From contig CAMUBZ010000003.1 in NCBI GenBank assembly GCA_947087275.1, positions 9,132 to 73,131 on the forward strand: 64,000 nt of DNA, given 5' to 3'. This DNA comes from an uncultured Candidatus Saccharibacteria bacterium (GTDB lineage: Bacteria; Patescibacteriota; Saccharimonadia; Saccharimonadales; Saccharimonadaceae). The notes under the pieces are model-generated. The model saw nothing but the letters and a program-made list of their open reading frames with translations, did not search any database and was not told where the DNA came from. The position numbers and the translations under genes were made by a program. Shown here piece by piece: positions 7,564 to 64,000 of the stretch; the stretch's first letter is position 1, and each line of letters begins with the position of its first letter.

Positions 7564-8713
7564 CTACCTCTATCTTTCCGATTAAATTTGTGCTTTCTGC
7601 TTCGGGTAAAGTTTCGACATTCTTGAGTTTGCGTTCAATCTGGCGTGAGGCAGTCTCGGCATCGCTAATCTTGTTGGCGGTTTCTTGAAGTTTTTTCTTG
7701 GTGGCGGCAAGCAAATCGCCAAACTTAGAGAATTGGGATTTGACAGCGCCAAGGGTTTGCCAAACTTCGGCCGAACGTTTTTCGATGGCGACGCTGCGGA
7801 ATCCCATGGTGAGGCCAGACAAAATCATCGGGAGCGTGGACGGCGAGGCAAGAGCAACATTGTACTTTTGGCGAATCTCGTCGGACAGACCAGGTATACG
7901 CAGAATCTCTGCATAAAGACTTTCGGTGGGGACAAACATCACGCCAAAATCCGTGGTAGCAGGTGGGTCAAGATATTTAGTAGAGATTTTCTTGGCCTGT
8001 TCTTTGACGTCCACAGTCAAAGCCTTGCGAAATTGCTCGATTTCGGCTTTCTCGCCATGATCATAGGCATTAAGCAAACGAGCATAATTTTCGACCGGAA
8101 ACTTGGAATCGATCGGTAGAAAAACCAGCTTTTCTTCTCTGCCTGGCATTTTGATGGCAAATTCTACCCGGTCGCTGCTGCCAGACTTAGTAATAACATT
8201 CTCTTGATATTGATCCGGCGAAAGACAATCGGAAATAATATTGCCAAGCTGAACCTCACCGTAAATCCCGCGAGTTTTGACGCCCTCCATGACCTTTTTG
8301 AGGTCGCCAACGCCATGGGCGAGGTTGCGCATCTCGCCCAGACCCTGATAAACCTGCGTTAATTGCCCAGAAATAGTTTTGAAACTCTCATTAAAACGTT
8401 GTTCAACCGATTTCTGCAGTTTTTCATCAACGGTCTGGCGCATTTCCTCCAACTTCTTGGAGTTGTCGTCTTGCAGGCTCTTGACACGACTATCTACGGT
8501 GCGCTGAATGCCTTGGAGGTTATCCGAGATTTCCTTACGATTCTCGCGGAATTCACCTTCGATTTTGGGAGCCAGTTTGTCGAGTTCGCCCTCGACGCGG
8601 ATGAGGCGCTCTTCGAGACGTGAAGTATCAACTCGTGCCACAGGCTTGCGTATAAGAAGCATCAGAAGCAGGACGACGATAACAATACCCAGTATGACCA
8701 GAATGATATCCAT
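7553..8713 (-). CDS. rmuC: DNA recombination protein RmuC
   Basis: N-terminal TM helix, long coiled coil and a C-terminal RmuC nuclease-like domain (FVPTESLYAE). Start set to ATG at 8713; the upstream MCYNTL codons are the promoter TGCTATAAT. Confidence 0.8.
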   Translation of the reverse strand: MDIILVILGIVIVVLLLMLLIRKPVARVDTSRLEERLIRVEGELDKLAPKIEGEFRENRKEISDNLQGIQRTVDSRVKSLQDDNSKKLEEMRQTVDEKLQKSVEQRFNESFKTISGQLTQVYQGLGEMRNLAHGVGDLKKVMEGVKTRGIYGEVQLGNIISDCLSPDQYQENVITKSGSSDRVEFAIKMPGREEKLVFLPIDSKFPVENYARLLNAYDHGEKAEIEQFRKALTVDVKEQAKKISTKYLDPPATTDFGVMFVPTESLYAEILRIPGLSDEIRQKYNVALASPSTLPMILSGLTMGFRSVAIEKRSAEVWQTLGAVKSQFSKFGDLLAATKKKLQETANKISDAETASRQIERKLKNVETLPEAESTNLIGKIEVDDA

Positions 8714-9756: not shown

Positions 9757-9987
9757 GTGCGCAGCGGGTATACCTATTTGCCTAATACTGCTGGTACATT
9801 TAGACTTGCGGCTAGTGTTGCAGAATACTGGTCATCGCGCGCATCCAGCACACGATTTGATGGAGTAAATGTATCTAGTGCTTACAAATTTGAGTTTAGT
9901 AGTATTATCAATCCTTCTAGTGGCCCAGATGCTAGAGCATATGCTTTCCCCCTCCGCTGCCTTAGTACTGTATTAGGTATGTAGGAG
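9757..9987 (+). repeat. orphan FISUMP/DUF1566-like C-terminal cassette, copy A
   Basis: Runs from GTGCGCAGCGG to CCTCCGCTGCCTTAGTACTGTATTAGGTATGTAGGAG. Open frame VRSGY...YWSSRA...AY...PLRCLSTVLGM*; no SD. Confidence 0.9.
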
Positions 9988-18787: not shown

Positions 18788-19000
18788 TTCCTACATACCT
18801 AATACAGTACTAAGGCAGCGGAGGGGGAGACTATTCCAACGATCATAAGCACTCTCAGGGTATGTTCCATTAGGGCTAAAACCCAGATTATAAGCGTGTG
18901 TGGTAGATGGATAAGCAGTTGATGCCCAGTATACTCCATAACCGCCTATATTCCTTAATCCACCATTATCGTTGTCTATGCCTATAAACCCGCTGCGCAC
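18788..19000 (-). repeat. orphan FISUMP/DUF1566-like C-terminal cassette, copy B
   Basis: Same conserved borders. Frame MRSGFIGIDN...YWASTAYPSTTHAYNL...PLRCLSTVLGM*. Confidence 0.9.
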
Positions 19001-20449: not shown

Positions 20450-20674
20450 GTGCGCAGCGGGCTCTTCACGCTTGCTACTACTGACGTCCTGAGATACGTT
20501 GCTACTGGTGGTTATGCATGGTCATCACGCAGCTCATCGACAAATCATTTTGGCACGGTTGTTCCAAGTGCTTACTATTTTGTTGTCAGCACGAGCAACA
20601 TGTCGTCGTATAGCGATCATCACTACTACGGCCTCCCCCTCCGCTGCCTTAGTACTGTATTAGGTATGTAGGAG
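20450..20674 (+). repeat. orphan FISUMP/DUF1566-like C-terminal cassette, copy C
   Basis: Conserved borders. Frame MRSGLFTLATT...YAWSSRSS...AYYF...PLRCLSTVLGM*. Confidence 0.9.
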
Positions 20675-20758
20675 GCGAATGAAGTAAAAAGTGCAAGCCC
20701 TTTTTACTTCTGAGCCGACGTCTATACCAGTCAACGTCAGTTGGCTGGTATGTAAGAG
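20675..20758 (+). repeat. 3' add-on module (two hairpins) ending in TATGTAAGAG
   Basis: Hairpins at 20681-20710 and 20727-20748. Near-identical to the module after copy H, except for an inverted hairpin core. Confidence 0.75.
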
Positions 20759-20770
20759 AGTATGAGTAGG

Positions 20771-21490
20771 CTATAGATTGACCACTGCTTCTAAGTTTTC
20801 CCACTCACCCGTAAAATTGTTCAGCACTTGCCATCGATCATCCATCTGGCGCACCTCGCGTAACCCGCCCTGAGCCCCAGTAATCGCATAAGTTTCTGGC
20901 TTACCATAATAAGAGTCTTCTGGCACGAGATAGACAAGATAACTCTTTCCTACCTCTGGCTCAACATCCCCCTGGGCTAAATCATGAATATATTTACCCT
21001 CATCGGATTCACCAGCTGCGGCTTGCATTTCTTGTCGTTTAGCATTCCCCTCTGGCGAGAGACTGCCGGTATAATATTGTTCTGCGGGTAACGTTCCGCC
21101 CAGGCGATAAAATACATAACTTTGACCTTCTTCGAGTTCACCTTTATAGCCAGCAATGATCGTCATACGGCCATAAGTATACGGTTTAACATATCCTTGA
21201 GCGATTTCGCTATAGTTATTCGCGCCGTCAATGGAATCAATTTTCACCAAAGCAATATAGTCGCTATGCTCGGCCATCACGGACGGGTTAGAGATATCAA
21301 TGATGTAATCTATCACACTCCCGACGTTTTCTCTTTGATCAGGTTTAGTTGTAGCATCCTCCTGCGTATCTTCATTCTCTTGCGTAAGGACATCGCCATC
21401 GTCGCGCTTTGTTTGTAAAATCATAATCGCTGCCGTAGCACTAATAATACTCGCTAGCACCACTAAAACTAAAATAATTTTCTTCTTCAT
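20771..21490 (-). CDS. hypothetical secreted or membrane-anchored protein
   Basis: N-terminal signal/TM segment MKKKIILVLVVLASIISATAA. ATG at 21490 is preceded by TATAAT-N6. Confidence 0.55.
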   Translation of the reverse strand: MKKKIILVLVVLASIISATAAIMILQTKRDDGDVLTQENEDTQEDATTKPDQRENVGSVIDYIIDISNPSVMAEHSDYIALVKIDSIDGANNYSEIAQGYVKPYTYGRMTIIAGYKGELEEGQSYVFYRLGGTLPAEQYYTGSLSPEGNAKRQEMQAAAGESDEGKYIHDLAQGDVEPEVGKSYLVYLVPEDSYYGKPETYAITGAQGGLREVRQMDDRWQVLNNFTGEWENLEAVVNL

Positions 21491-29648: not shown

Positions 29649-29876
29649 GTGCGCAGCGGGATGATACCTCCAGACGCTGGTAGACTATGGCGTATTGGTC
29701 AGAATGGCTATAACTGGGCATTACGAGCAATGTCTATTCATACCGATGGTACAGGATATCTTAGCGCTTATGACCTAAAGATTGACGCTAATATAGTTTA
29801 TCCGTCAGAGGGGCCAAGTTATCGTTTCTACGGTCTCTCCCTCCGCTGCCTTAGTACTGTATTAGGTATGTAGGAG
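29649..29876 (+). repeat. orphan FISUMP/DUF1566-like C-terminal cassette, copy D
   Basis: Conserved borders. Frame VRSGMIPPDAG...YNWALRA...AYDL...LSLRCLSTVLGM*. Confidence 0.9.
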
Positions 29877-30440: not shown

Positions 30441-30653
30441 CTCCTACATACCTAATACAGTACTAAGGCAGCGGAGGGGGAAAGCGCCCCAACGATGATC
30501 TGGAATATCTGACGGGTTGACTGTTATATTAAAATAGAGGTCATACGCATCACTAACGGATGCAGCTGTGCGTGATGACCACCAGAGACTACCATAGCCG
30601 GCATTCCGGAAAGTGCCAGTAGTATTCGCCGGATTAACATTCCCGCTGCGCAC
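30441..30653 (-). repeat. orphan FISUMP/DUF1566-like C-terminal cassette, copy E
   Basis: Conserved borders. Frame VRSGNVNPANTTGTFRNAGYGSLWWSSR...AYDL...FPLRCLSTVLGM*. Confidence 0.9.
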
Positions 30654-44004: not shown

Positions 44005-44214
44005 CTCCTACATACCTAATACAGTACTAAGGCAGCGGAGGGAGTAACCGTAAGAGAGGAATCGCGGGCTATTGGATGGCTGCACAGTAAGATTTCCTAT
44101 TACAAGATTATATGCATTCTGCGCGCTTTCTAGCCATGAAGACCACCAACATCCGCTAAAAACTGTGCCCTTTAAAGTGCTAGCAGTTCTTAAATCAATA
44201 TACCCGCTGCGCAC
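44005..44214 (-). repeat. orphan FISUMP/DUF1566-like C-terminal cassette, copy F
   Basis: Conserved borders. Frame MRSGYIDLRTAS...CWWSSW...AYNL...YSLRCLSTVLGM*. Confidence 0.9.
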
Positions 44215-44735: not shown

Positions 44736-44960
44736 GTGCGCAGCGGGTATATCTTCCCAACTGTTGAGAGTGGTCACAATGCGGGTTCGCGAGCTATGGG
44801 CGCCACTGGAGACTATTGGACATCGCGAGCATCTTCTACATCACCTTCTAATGCCTATTGGCTTGAAATTACTACAACAGTGCTTCCGTCACGCACTCCG
44901 CTCAATCGCTACAATAGTTTCCCCCTCCGCTGCCTTAGTACTGTATTAGGTATGTAGGAG
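44736..44960 (+). repeat. orphan FISUMP/DUF1566-like C-terminal cassette, copy G
   Basis: Conserved borders. Frame MRSGYIFPTVES...YWTSRASS...AYWL...FPLRCLSTVLGM*. Confidence 0.9.
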
Positions 44961-45141: not shown

Positions 45142-45351
45142 GTGCGCAGCGGGTACGTCTACTTGCCTAATACTAGGACTCATGATGGCGCTGGCCAATA
45201 TGGATATTGGCGAACATCTCGTGCCTATTCATCAACTACACAGGCTTACCGCTTAGGGTTTCATGCTAGCATCGTATCACCATCTTTGAGTGATCCACGC
45301 TCCAACGCTTTCCCCCTCCGCTGCCTTAGTACTGTATTAGGTATGTAGGAG
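45142..45351 (+). repeat. orphan FISUMP/DUF1566-like C-terminal cassette, copy H
   Basis: Conserved borders. Frame MRSGYVYLPNT...YWRTSRAYSSTTQAYRL...FPLRCLSTVLGM*. Confidence 0.9.
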
Positions 45352-45436
45352 GCGAATGAAGTAAAAAGGGCTTGCACTTTTTACTTCTGAGCCGACGTCC
45401 ATACCAGTCAACGTTAGTTGACTGGCTATGTAGGAG
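45352..45436 (+). repeat. 3' add-on module (two hairpins) ending in a second TATGTAGGAG
   Basis: Hairpins at 45358-45387 and 45404-45425. Direct repeat TATGTAGGAG at 45342-45351 and 45427-45436. Confidence 0.75.
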
Positions 45437-45444
45437 TGGAGTAA

Positions 45445-45477
45445 AGTAAAAGAAACGGGCAGCCTATGGCTACCCGT
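45445..45477 (-). terminator. intrinsic terminator after 45491-46060
   Basis: ACGGGTAGCC-ATA-GGCTGCCCGT followed by a T-rich run on the minus strand. Confidence 0.55.
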
Positions 45478-50220: not shown

Positions 50221-50445
50221 GTGCGCAGCGGAGGCTTTGCCTTAACGGTTGCGAATGGCATCCTCAGACGTGCTGGCCAAGGTGGTATTTATTGGTCAAA
50301 TCAGGCTGGAATATACATATCTGATATATCGGCTCCTGCATATTATCTCGATTTAAATGCTACCAGTGTGGCTTCATCCGGGCTAAATAGTCGTTACCAT
50401 GGTTTCCCCCTCCGCTGCCTTAGTACTGTATTAGGTATGTAGGAG
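50221..50445 (+). repeat. orphan FISUMP/DUF1566-like C-terminal cassette, copy I
   Basis: Conserved borders. Frame MRSGGFALTVAN...IYWSNQ...AYYL...FPLRCLSTVLGM*. Confidence 0.9.
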
Positions 50446-51465: not shown

Positions 51466-51494
51466 ATTATAGCGCAAATTGCGAAAAAAGGCAA
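51466..51494 (-). promoter_or_regulatory. candidate rpsL promoter (TTGCCT-17-TATAAT) with a leader hairpin at 51421-51451
   Basis: -10 at 51466-51471 and -35 at 51489-51494 on the minus strand. Confidence 0.5.
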
Positions 51495-51535
51495 GAACTT
51501 TATTGCTTGCGTATCGCTCCTGCGCACCTAATACA

Positions 51536-51751
51536 GTGCGCAGCGGGTACTTCAGTTTGGCTACTACTGCTGGCGTCCTCAGTCACACTAGTGCAGCTGG
51601 CGACTGGTGGTCATCGCGAGCGTCTTCGTCGGCTGCTTATGGGTACCACTCGAACTTCGGTGCTTCAAGCGTGGCTCCGTCGGCCGACTCTGGTAATCGT
51701 TACGTCGGTCGTCCCCTCCGCTGCCTTAGTACTGTATTAGGTATGTAGGAG
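51536..51751 (+). repeat. orphan FISUMP/DUF1566-like C-terminal cassette, copy J
   Basis: Conserved borders. Frame VRSGYFSLATTAG...DWWSSRASS...RPLRCLSTVLGM*. Confidence 0.9.
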
Positions 51752-51981
51752 TACGAAATGATAAAATCAAGTTGTGGATACACCTCCATGGGTACCAAAA
51801 GCAGCCCGAGCTCACTCCTCCGCTAGCTGGCGGTCCTCGAGAAAAGATCGTGAAGTTCCCTTCTGAGTTCTAAGAGAAACATTGAGGCTTGATGATTTTT
51901 GGCTACGGCCAGAAAGACAATATATGAACTTCTAACCATTCCGGTCACTGACTGCGATTTTTTCGTTGTTTGAGTAGAGGC

Positions 51982-52168
51982 GTGCGCAGCGGGTATGTCA
52001 ATCCGGCTAACTCGGCTGGTACCTTTAGGAACGCTGGCAACAACGGCAACTGGTGGGCGTCGCGAGCCTACTCGTCCACTACCCACGCGTACAACCTCAA
52101 CGTTTATACGACGGTGAATCCGTCAAACAACAGCAATCGTTACGCCGGTTTCTCCCTCCGCTGCCTTA
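51982..52168 (+). repeat. FISUMP/DUF1566-like cassette, copy K, 3'-truncated after CCGCTGCCTTA
   Basis: Frame VRSGYVNPANSAGTFRNAGNNGNWWASRAYSSTTHAYNL...FSLRCL. Homology ends at 52168 and unrelated sequence with a promoter follows. Confidence 0.85.
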
Positions 52169-52198
52169 TTTTTGCCGCGGGGGTGCCGATCTTTGCCA

Positions 52199-52227
52199 TT
52201 GACAAATTACATTATCCGTGGTACAAT
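52199..52227 (+). promoter_or_regulatory. consensus promoter TTGACA-17-TACAAT with TGn
   Basis: -35 at 52199-52204 and -10 at 52222-52227. It begins 31 nt after the copy K breakpoint. Confidence 0.6.
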
Positions 52228-63192: not shown

Positions 63193-64000
63193 TTAATGAT
63201 TAAGTGCCTGCCGGCTTGTACTAATACTAGCCATGAAGTCACCGATGTCAGCATCATCAAAAGCAAAATCGAAATCAGAATCGCCAGAAGTTGATGAAGG
63301 CGCAGCGGGACGGATTTGCGGAATTGGTTTAGCCGGAACCGGATCCCCCGGCGAGTAATCGGTGGTGCTGGCCTTAAAAATTGGCAGGTTTTTGCCTGCA
63401 TGACTAATTTGCACCAAACACTCGCGACATTTGAGGCCAGATAATAACTTGGCTTGGTCATCATCTGTGTCACTGCCCACCAATTTAATCTCTAAGTTCT
63501 GTGCCAGCATATTAGCGTCCGTACGCGACACCCGAAATAGATAATAATTAGAGACATTGGCAAAAATCGAATCGCGCAAACTCGGGCTAATCTGGGCGAA
63601 GTATTGCCCAGCTAGAAACACCGAAACTCCGTACTTGCGTAGTTCAGAAAGAAAACGTGGCAAAATGGGATTTTCAACTACCGCGACTTCGTCAATAATA
63701 ATCAAGAGTTGTTTGGATGACGAGCGACTTTGGGCTAAGAGAAAAATTTGTTGCATGAGTAGACCAGCCAAAGTCCGAACGACTTGGTCGCCAAACTGGA
63801 GACGATTGAGCGAAAAAATCGTAAGAAATGTATCCTGCAAAACCCCTGCTAGGCCTACCGATTGGCAGGCTTGGTTGAAGGCTGGGACCATCTGCATCTC
63901 ATCGACAAAAGCGATAATTGGAGCAATGGCCTCGCTATAGGATTTGGTTTTGAGTTCTTGAAAATCCGTGAGAAAAAATTGCGCAACGCTATCCGGCAAC
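63193..64000 (-). CDS. P-loop NTPase C-terminal portion, TraG/VirD4/HerA-FtsK-like; N-terminus lies beyond the window
   Basis: Walker B-like LIIIDEVAVV followed by RKYGVSVFLAGQYFAQI, as in type IV secretion coupling or DUF87-type ATPases. ORF is open to the window edge. Confidence 0.5.
   Translation of the reverse strand, partial: LPDSVAQFFLTDFQELKTKSYSEAIAPIIAFVDEMQMVPAFNQACQSVGLAGVLQDTFLTIFSLNRLQFGDQVVRTLAGLLMQQIFLLAQSRSSSKQLLIIIDEVAVVENPILPRFLSELRKYGVSVFLAGQYFAQISPSLRDSIFANVSNYYLFRVSRTDANMLAQNLEIKLVGSDTDDDQAKLLSGLKCRECLVQISHAGKNLPIFKASTTDYSPGDPVPAKPIPQIRPAAPSSTSGDSDFDFAFDDADIGDFMASISTSRQALNH

Follow-up and report, generated by a model that had tools for sequence, protein, structure and literature searches.

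An inverted border junction beside a variable-repeat cassette in a multi-template diversity-generating retroelement system of a rodent-gut Saccharibacterium

The 64,000-nt stretch of contig CAMUBZ010000003.1 analysed here (hereafter, the window) comes from an uncultured Candidatus Saccharibacteria bacterium and carries ten short cassettes with common ends, one of which, cassette J, is directly preceded by a palindromic junction at 51517-51547. The window is part of a diversity-generating retroelement (DGR) system of uncommon size in a Saccharibacterium from the rodent gut, with multiple templates and orphan cassettes, and the conserved cassette borders are very probably the limits of homology between the template repeats (TRs) and variable repeats (VRs) of that system. 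The junction may be the scar of a deletion that removed a head-to-head partner of cassette J and was later perfected into a palindrome, a reading to which we give a probability of about one half. The DGR architecture around it outweighs the palindrome in interest, the latter being probably a neutral scar of little weight on its own.

Cassette borders as limits of template and variable homology

The ten cassettes are ~200 bp long and have in common the 5' border GTGCGCAGCGGG and the 3' border CTCCGCTGCCTTAGTACTGTATTAGGTATGTAGGAG, with interiors that are ~45-50% divergent and of which no two are the same. Read in frame, they encode VRSG...WWSS...AY...PS...R..G.PLRCLSTVLGM, and their peptides gave only sub-threshold matches to the C-terminal parts of Fib_succ_major and Lcl_C when compared to Pfam. 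Judged by sequence, each cassette comprises ~65 codons from the end of a lectin-type target and, after them, a VR-specific flank. None of the ten is located in a long open reading frame (ORF) or an intact target gene, and for this reason we consider them orphan VRs. In relatives, the cassettes are likewise 5'-truncated fragments of varying length.

An additional copy, K (51982..52168, plus strand), has the same 5' border, contains nine AAC codons and 12 Asn, and departs from the family right after CCTTA. In the databases, K has as homologues short Asn-rich ORFs that are template repeats; one of these adjoins an RVT_1 gene and forms a classic A-to-N TR/VR pair. This homologue is found in a Saccharibacteria contig (L007; related loci are numbered in this way throughout) that holds a textbook DGR, with a 451-aa target, a TR differing from the end of the target only at template adenines, and the RVT_1 gene adjacent to them. 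Straight after CCTTA, K carries a template-type 3' flank, TTTTTGCCGCGGGGGTGCCGATCTTT (52169..52194, plus strand), in place of the VR-type one, and this flank is kept as GCCGCGGnGGGTGCCGATCTTTT after template-type repeats in at least seven genomes or assemblies. The GC-rich end CTCCGCTGCCT(T) is shared by both types of repeat, and in at least seven genomes or assemblies it continues as AGTACTGTATTAG... in variable cassettes and as ...GCCGCGGnGGGTGCCGATC in template modules, i.e., the DGR arrangement of a common GC-rich 3' end followed by a sequence of either the IMH (initiation of mutagenic homing) type or the IMH* type. The 23-nt VR-specific flank, GTACTGTATTAGGTATGTAGGAG, which follows J at 51729..51751 (plus strand), would by analogy correspond to the IMH element described in other DGRs. 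In the window, 9/10 VR-type cassettes have it in identical form, cassette C ending in AGGAAG instead; K lacks it, and relatives keep it as (T/G)AGTACTGTATTAG. By analogy with the Bordetella target hairpin we also folded the normal VR 3' border and flank and found no significant hairpin. On these sequences, GTGCGCAGCGGG is the 5' limit and CCTTA| the 3' limit of template/variable homology. The initial annotation, from the junction and the copy K breakpoint together, had placed exchange points between CCTTA| and |ATG; the CCTTA| position is instead where the homology ends and either GCCGCGGnGGGTGCCGATC or GTACTGTATTAGGTATGTAGGAG begins.

Adenine-biased differences were found in pairs of repeats from relatives. 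The TR of L085 and a VR of the same genome (CAYXCA) at L017:13220 are 91% identical without gaps, and their mismatches fall on 10/34 template adenines compared to 3/57 C, 2/55 G and 2/45 T (7/157 for the three other bases together). When the best metagenome TR/VR pairs were pooled, the figures were 35/108 for A and 42/486 for the other bases. Two strains, L048 and L049, are 100% identical over 554 nt upstream and ~60 nt downstream of a cassette whose interiors come from different families, the switch occurring exactly at GTGCGCAGCGGG and CCCCCTCCGCTGCC, which suggests that any template can overwrite any cassette. These two cassettes are located downstream of gyrA (L048:10142-10330 and L049:10142-10336) and differ in length by 6 nt. 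Along the same lines, the cassettes between rpsG and GAPDH in five species (orthologues of window cassette I2 in L014 to L017) have identical borders and unalignable interiors, although the S7 and GAPDH proteins are >94% identical.

A reverse transcriptase (RT) was found in a cassette-rich assembly, L221, as a 424-aa ORF with IGNLTSQ and YVDD motifs, a match to RVT_1 and 49% identity to the L007 RT, next to an accessory ORF and a cassette. This gene was recovered by tblastn in loci fetched for another purpose; a related-locus search with the L007 RT as the query gave no confirmed locus. Contigs ~85% identical to the L221 RT appear in four of the runs that contain the window sequence, at a low, near-single-copy depth similar to that of the window genome, to which they may be linked. 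The accessory ORFs beside the RT in L007 and L221 (315 to 331 aa) are homologous to each other (29% identity) and had no match in Pfam or NCBIfam and none to Avd. The region between the cassette flank and the RT gene of L221 (L221:261-720) is GC rich and has many hairpins; its first part (261-477) is kept in Logan contigs, where it is also joined to the RT.

Several observations weigh against the DGR interpretation as applied to the window itself. No YxDD ORF of at least 200 aa was found in the 64 kb, so DGR activity in this genome is deduced from relatives and from co-occurring contigs. None of the window cassettes (0/10) has the placement expected of a DGR, in which an intact target gene with a C-type-lectin or FGE-like fold has the VR as its C-terminal end. 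Mismatches between K and the interiors of the window cassettes are not A specific, so K does not explain them; this is the case even for cassette F (30441..30653, minus strand), whose interior is the nearest to K within the window and is 68% identical to the K orthologue of L002. A simple one-template DGR, with K as the template of all ten window cassettes, was rejected on the grounds that mismatches occur at all four bases. K and its L002 orthologue are 88% identical and differ mainly at third positions.

The junction upstream of cassette J and its origin

The junction reads CTCCTGCGCAC-CTAATACA-GTGCGCAGCGGG (CTCCTGCGCACCTAATACAGTGCGCAGCGGG when written unbroken), letter for letter as in the initial annotation. 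The core of the 3' border, ACTGTATTAGGT, has 11 exact matches in the window versus 0.16 expected from shuffles, plus one match with a single mismatch within a gene. Ten of them terminate cassettes A, C, D, E, F, G, H, I, I2 and J, and the eleventh, the sole copy that does not terminate a cassette, lies on the minus strand at 51526-51537 and overlaps the 5' border of J (51536-51547) by the dinucleotide GT. The proposed fusion of an inverted 3' border to the J 5' border at this GT is therefore exact, and with such an excess of copies a chance match can be ruled out. The 8-mer GTGCGCAG has 13 matches (2.6 expected), including an inverted copy at 51520-51527, and as annotated there are two inverted arms (51520-51527 and 51536-51543) around an 8-nt loop (51528-51535), which make up a perfect strandless 8-8-8 palindrome, CTGCGCAC/CTAATACA/GTGCGCAG, at 51520..51543. 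Folded as single-stranded DNA it reaches a dG of -10.3 kcal/mol (z = -3.1). Perfect 8-bp hairpins are not rare in the window, with ~27 sites that are mainly terminators (55 overlapping matches versus ~10 in a Markov simulation), and what is special about this palindrome is the identity of the sequences that form its arms, not the hairpin as such.

The inverted similarity around J extends to 21 nt, with CTCCT-nnnn-ACCTAATACAGT matching the reverse complement of ACTGTATTAGGT-ATGT-AGGAG at 17/21 positions, and beyond these 21 nt it is not significant (p about 0.10-0.15). Read on the minus strand, 51517..51537 is an inverted remnant of a VR-type 3' flank, ACTGTATTAGGT-GCGC-AGGAG, where the standard flank is ACTGTATTAGGT-ATGT-AGGAG. 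It lies 22 nt from the promoter of rpsL (S12) (TTGCCT-17-TATAAT, 51466..51494, minus strand), which is kept in L002, L014, L015, L016 and L017, so that J and both its flanks are placed between two divergent promoters, those of rpsL and of the K module. In L002, L003 and L016, the rpsL promoter and the K module are not separated by this unit of ~255 nt (J with both flanks), which is missing there as a whole.

To evaluate how frequent such junctions are, we used 62 cassette 5' borders from the fetched loci and 65 unique cassettes from metagenome loci (~450 kb, several related assemblies). The tetramer 5' of the 62 borders was CTTC in 33, TTTC in 12 and others in the rest, TACA appearing only once, at J. 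The search for further border junctions that the initial annotation had called for found none: no fetched locus besides J has an inverted core adjoining one of the 62 borders, the count among the metagenome cassettes was 0/65, no second example appeared among about 170 other cassettes, and the junction 19-mer CTAATACAGTGCGCAGCGG had no match in genome_contigs or metagenome_contigs (a control pattern of the 3' border matched 69 stretches in the latter). Logan contigs across the junction were identical in eight runs, at single-copy k-mer depth, and the junction k-mers were present at 1.00 in 19 rodent-gut runs from rats and mice. No alternative joint was visible in the Logan contigs, although contigs can hide rare variants, and no run held a variant strain, all having the same junction. 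The interior of J was equally invariant across the 19 runs. Since the whole locus is clonal in these runs, the invariance of the junction is uninformative about its function.

The 8-8-8 geometry had been taken to be that of a tyrosine-recombinase or Xer-type core site, and site-specific recombination of this kind at cassette borders would also agree with the presence of cassettes in both orientations and with interiors that are exchanged exactly between borders. We consider it highly improbable. The junction is unique, no core site being repeated across the borders, cassettes and two contig collections searched; the joined sites are not copies of one core site, having only GT(A/G)C in common; normal 3' borders are not palindromic; no Phage_integrase domain was detected in the 20 mid-size ORFs of the window that were screened for a candidate recombinase; and no alternative joints appear in the contigs of the 19 runs. 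The borders, in turn, are accounted for by template/variable homology, adenine bias and the RT. Thus, of the recombination between borders that had been proposed, the non-random border-to-border fusion stands, as does the swapping of interiors between borders (L048/L049), and the mechanism does not. An inversion between a 3' and a 5' border was worked out on paper and predicts two junctions unlike the observed one, only a direct-orientation deletion being compatible with it. A miniature inverted-repeat or foldback mobile element was also discarded, given that there is no clear target-site duplication with respect to the empty site of L002 and no second copy with this structure.

We infer from the sequence that a minus-oriented cassette, X, has been lost here and that the remnant at 51517-51537 was its 3' flank. 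Cassette J would first have had X as an oppositely oriented head-to-head neighbour, with the 3' flank of X facing the rpsL promoter, as in L015. A deletion of ~215 bp between two GT dinucleotides, in plus-strand terms from ...ACCTAATACA-GT|ACTAAGG... in X to ...CTTC-GT|GCGCAG in J, would then have removed the GC-rich end, body and 5' border of X together with the spacer, and reduced X to a 21-nt flank butted on J. This would have placed an inverted GT-ATG(T/C)-AG beside GT-GCGC-AG, a quasi-palindrome matching at 5-6/8 positions, whose arms two or three later transitions would have perfected, probably templated by the hairpin itself, a process known from quasi-palindromes.

The L015 locus, from the closest relative by trigger factor (90%), provides evidence for the deletion scar. 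There, an intact cassette occupies the place of the window remnant and has the same orientation, its 3' flank (ACTGTATTAGAC-ATGC-AGGAAG) adjoining the rpsL promoter, and that cassette is head-to-head with a partner, their 5' borders being 16 nt apart. Removing the stretch GT|ACTAAGG...CTTC GT| from an L015-type pair leaves ACCTAATACA-GT-GCGCAGCGGG, which reproduces the junction ACCTAATACAGTGCGCAGCGGG exactly. The L015 flank alone reads ATGC where other cassettes read ATGT, and the GCGC of the remnant has the same C; completion of the palindrome requires two changes from the L015 flank and three from the window consensus, all of them transitions. Head-to-head VR pairs, often 5' of a template module, are found in L015 (twice), L103, L182, L196, L014, L016 and L017 and in the window (cassettes G and H), and flank-only cassette remnants exist elsewhere (2/111). 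The uniqueness and fixation of the junction likewise speak for a scar. If the scar is what it seems, it shows how such cassettes get lost.

Within this set, the sites L015:13432-13469, L015:14275-14312 and L017:5246-5279 comprise head-to-head pairs with 5' borders 16 nt apart and 12-nt inverted repeats, as well as a head-to-tail tandem in which a short linker of ~25 nt, made up of the 3' flank and ...GAGCAAACTTC, leads to the following GTGCGCAG. The minimal remnants, at L188:~8049-8090 and on the minus strand of L213 (~330-370), are limited to CTCCCC(C)TCCGCTGCC and a VR-type flank; both start at the same point and have AT-rich non-coding DNA upstream, and they may have been left by deletions or serve to seed new cassettes. 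A possible presence/absence polymorphism at L002 5099-5320 proved to be a small gene of the ordinary kind, which the window has as well.

Other data speak against the deletion scar. No genome with X intact beside J was found, and the orthology between the remnant and the L015 cassette is based on where they lie, how they are oriented and a single base in common. Both J and the remnant are missing in L002 and L016, which fits more than one order of gain and loss. On its right side, the deletion would stop precisely at the start of the 5' anchor of J, a coincidence of ~1 in 20 for a random deletion and subject to ascertainment bias, and the GCGC block could arise equally in the rival scenarios that follow.

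One of these, which we regard as unlikely, is a fold-back or template-switch inverted duplication, in which a nascent minus strand ending at the J 5' border (...GCGCAC-3') would have switched via AC/GT microhomology onto the minus strand of the J 3' flank and copied ~20-45 nt of it during replication, break repair or reverse transcription, yielding a short inverted repeat around J. The 21-nt inverted repeat that flanks J is what such an event would leave, a hand alignment extends a looser collinear similarity (~70% over ~46 nt) into J-specific downstream sequence, and the absence of the whole ~255-nt unit in L002, L003 and L016 is in agreement as well. However, a longer inverted repeat derived from the flank of J itself was discarded, as similarity past the generic 21 nt is not significant and the flanks of cassettes D and I outscore that of J. 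Besides, a fold-back makes no use of the real L015 cassette in that place and orientation, and it has no other example among the about 170 cassettes.

Quite unlikely, in our opinion, is a by-product of DGR retrohoming between head-to-head targets, either through a cDNA with its 3' end complementary to the 5' anchor or through a break at the IMH-like flank of X that was mis-joined. One end point of the junction is the first base of the template-homologous anchor, and the other is 7-9 nt into the VR-specific flank, right after the template/variable boundary. Mis-pairing between inverted partners 16 nt apart would be possible, since the core of the anchor, TGCGCA, is palindromic. In addition, the A content of J (0.13) is the lowest of the window cassettes (0.19-0.26 in the others) and like that of freshly rewritten VRs. 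By composition, J resembles the cassettes of relatives (median 0.16), and the other window cassettes appear relaxed although their borders are perfect. Against retrohoming, this is one single case, the template RNA extends upstream into the leader with no obvious cause for the cDNA to stop at the anchor, and the J interior is invariant in the 19 runs. Were it true, the junction would mark the points where a trans-acting DGR breaks and joins DNA, and a single RT would serve several RNA genes of the promoter-leader-template type and on the order of 100 orphan VR cassettes, in a genome assumed to be of ~1 Mb.

Finally, the hairpin might have been kept for a function, as a cruciform or hairpin for DGR target recognition (like the hairpin 3' of the Bordetella phage VR) or to insulate the divergent promoters of rpsL and K from each other, which we find very doubtful. 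The stem is perfect and GC rich, with the z value given above, all three differences from the standard flank improve its pairing, it is invariant in the 19 runs and it sits between two promoters. Nevertheless, it is missing at all other cassettes and in the orthologous intergenic regions of L002, L014, L016 and L017, which work without it, it stands at the 5' and not the 3' end of a VR, normal VR flanks have no hairpin, and a clonal locus makes the invariance uninformative.

Cassettes and template modules

Cassette J itself (51536..51728, plus strand) is an orphan VR-type cassette that starts with GTGCGCAGCGGG, ends with CTCCGCTGCCTTA and corresponds to the C-terminal ~64 codons of a putative Fib_succ_major/Lcl_C-like lectin domain. 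Apart from F and J, the plus strand holds A (9757..9987), D (20450..20674), E (29649..29876), H (44736..44960), I (45142..45351) and I2 (50221..50445), the latter an orphan VR between GAPDH and rpsG, and the minus strand holds C (18788..19000) and G (44005..44214), which is head-to-head with H at a distance of 522 nt. To the ten cassettes in 64 kb can be added the at least 65 unique ones of the ~450 kb of metagenome loci, and the k-mer depth of the 3' border in Logan runs is from tens to >100 times that of a single copy.

Cassettes D and I have different interiors and upstream sequences and a near-identical 3' flank of ~115 nt (20666-20790 and 45343-45470). The common segment is bounded by a TATGTA(G/A)GAG repeat and has the appearance of a short sequence inserted into the flank of the cassette. 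It contains a terminator-like hairpin whose central 10 nt have opposite orientations in D and I (GTGCAAGCCC versus GGGCTTGCAC). Genes for TraG/VirD4-like coupling proteins (TraG-D_C, T4SS-DNA_transf, DUF8128) were found near cassette clusters in the window (63193-63999), L008 (9412-12108) and L048 (338-3031).

Upstream of K, a putative extended -10 box, TGATAAAAT (51759..51767, plus strand), lies 7 nt past the 3' flank of J and is followed by a structured leader RNA (51771..51981, plus strand) with the motifs GTGGAT..ATCCATGGG, GAGCTCACTCCTCCGC and AAGATCGTGAA, a cUACGg-type hairpin and AACTTCT. The motifs GTGGAT..CCATGGG, GAGCTCACTCC and AAGATCGTGAA of the ~210 nt 5' of K are also present 5' of the L007 TR. 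A covarying leader of ~170-210 nt, with its own putative -10 box, is located directly 5' of every template-type repeat found, with instances in L002, L004, L008, L016, L053, L069, L085, L094, L103, L106, L107, L118, L120, L182, L183 and L196 besides the window. Alignment of 16 leaders gave 39 predicted pairs, 16 of them with compensatory changes (the cUACGg-type hairpin included), and most of the aligned modules have a TGnTAnAAT or TAnAAT box 5-8 nt 5' of the first leader hairpin. The leader is thus a candidate scaffold of the DGR template RNA; it matched no Rfam family, and Rfam and tRNA scans of the window gave nothing. When representative genomes were searched for GAGCTCACTCCTCCGC, several sites appeared in each of four related Saccharibacteria metagenome-assembled genomes, and downstream of every one lies a repeat that has the 5' border and carries the flank GGGTGCCGATC; these repeats are mostly Asn rich and belong to different sequence families. 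Further contigs matching the K-type flank and leader are present in the same runs as the window sequence. The recurrence of the motif sites, flank, leader covariation and -10 boxes makes K one of several stand-alone template RNA genes. Two possibly-RNA runs contain contigs over the leader and K but not J, one contig spanning 51794-51945, which is weak evidence. Right after the template flank there is a near-consensus promoter with TG (TTGACA-17-TACAAT, 52199-52227) that would drive a 176-aa ORF with no Pfam match, kept beside K in L002 and L003 and missing in L016.

The unusual layout of the system consists of dispersed, independently transcribed template RNA genes with a conserved covarying leader outside Rfam, and of targets that are mostly gene fragments lacking the N terminus, at very high copy in the reduced genome of an epibiont. 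If the system is active, it has to be asked what keeps the orphan VRs and their 23-nt flank invariant while the interiors turn over, and whether any template can rewrite any cassette, as the L048/L049 switch suggests.

Comparison with known systems

The reference system is the DGR of Bordetella phage BPP-1, with its mtd VR, TR, IMH/IMH*, Avd and bRT. As in BPP-1, the template is AAC rich, the variable copy is the C-terminal end of a lectin-fold domain, TR and VR have a GC-rich end in common followed by differing sequences, the RT found in relatives has an (I/V)GxxxSQ motif, and a short 5' homology suffices. The present system departs from BPP-1 in having several stand-alone template RNA genes, which lie far from the RT and carry a conserved structured 5' leader; in addition, most targets are fragments without an ORF, no hairpin follows the VR, and the accessory ORF (~315-330 aa) has no match to Avd.

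Quasi-palindrome (template-switch) mutagenesis and microhomology-mediated deletion at bacterial inverted repeats have reportedly been described by Ripley and Lovett. The proposed scar resembles those cases in that a deletion between 2-nt repeats beside a large inverted repeat would be followed by clustered changes that all perfect the hairpin, with the difference that here the process is deduced from one natural allele, the ancestral sequence not being in hand. Xer/dif and the R64 shufflon (sfx/Rci) also have short inverted arms around a spacer of ~8 nt and alternative C-terminal segments in both orientations, but in our case no repeated core site, recombinase or structural heterogeneity was found, and exchange is unidirectional, adenine biased and from template modules. 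Like the silent copies of Neisseria pilS/pilE and Borrelia vls, the cassettes have neither a promoter nor the N-terminal part, and they combine conserved ends with variable interiors. Unlike in those systems, no expression locus was found and no interior is common to two window cassettes, the 5' homology is of only 12-16 nt, and an RT, templates and adenine bias are involved.

A search of the library available for literature on Saccharibacteria with variable repeats and an RT, or on orphan VRs, found nothing. In the large surveys consulted, DGRs have at most eight targets each and usually one in bacteria of the candidate phyla radiation, the multi-target examples being Treponema denticola, with seven remote targets, and Stenotrophomonas, with eight (PMC5758913), and remote targets escape standard pipelines (PMC8144416). 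The system described here is similar to those of T. denticola and Stenotrophomonas in that one RT would act in trans on dispersed targets, but it differs from both in having far more cassettes and several different templates.

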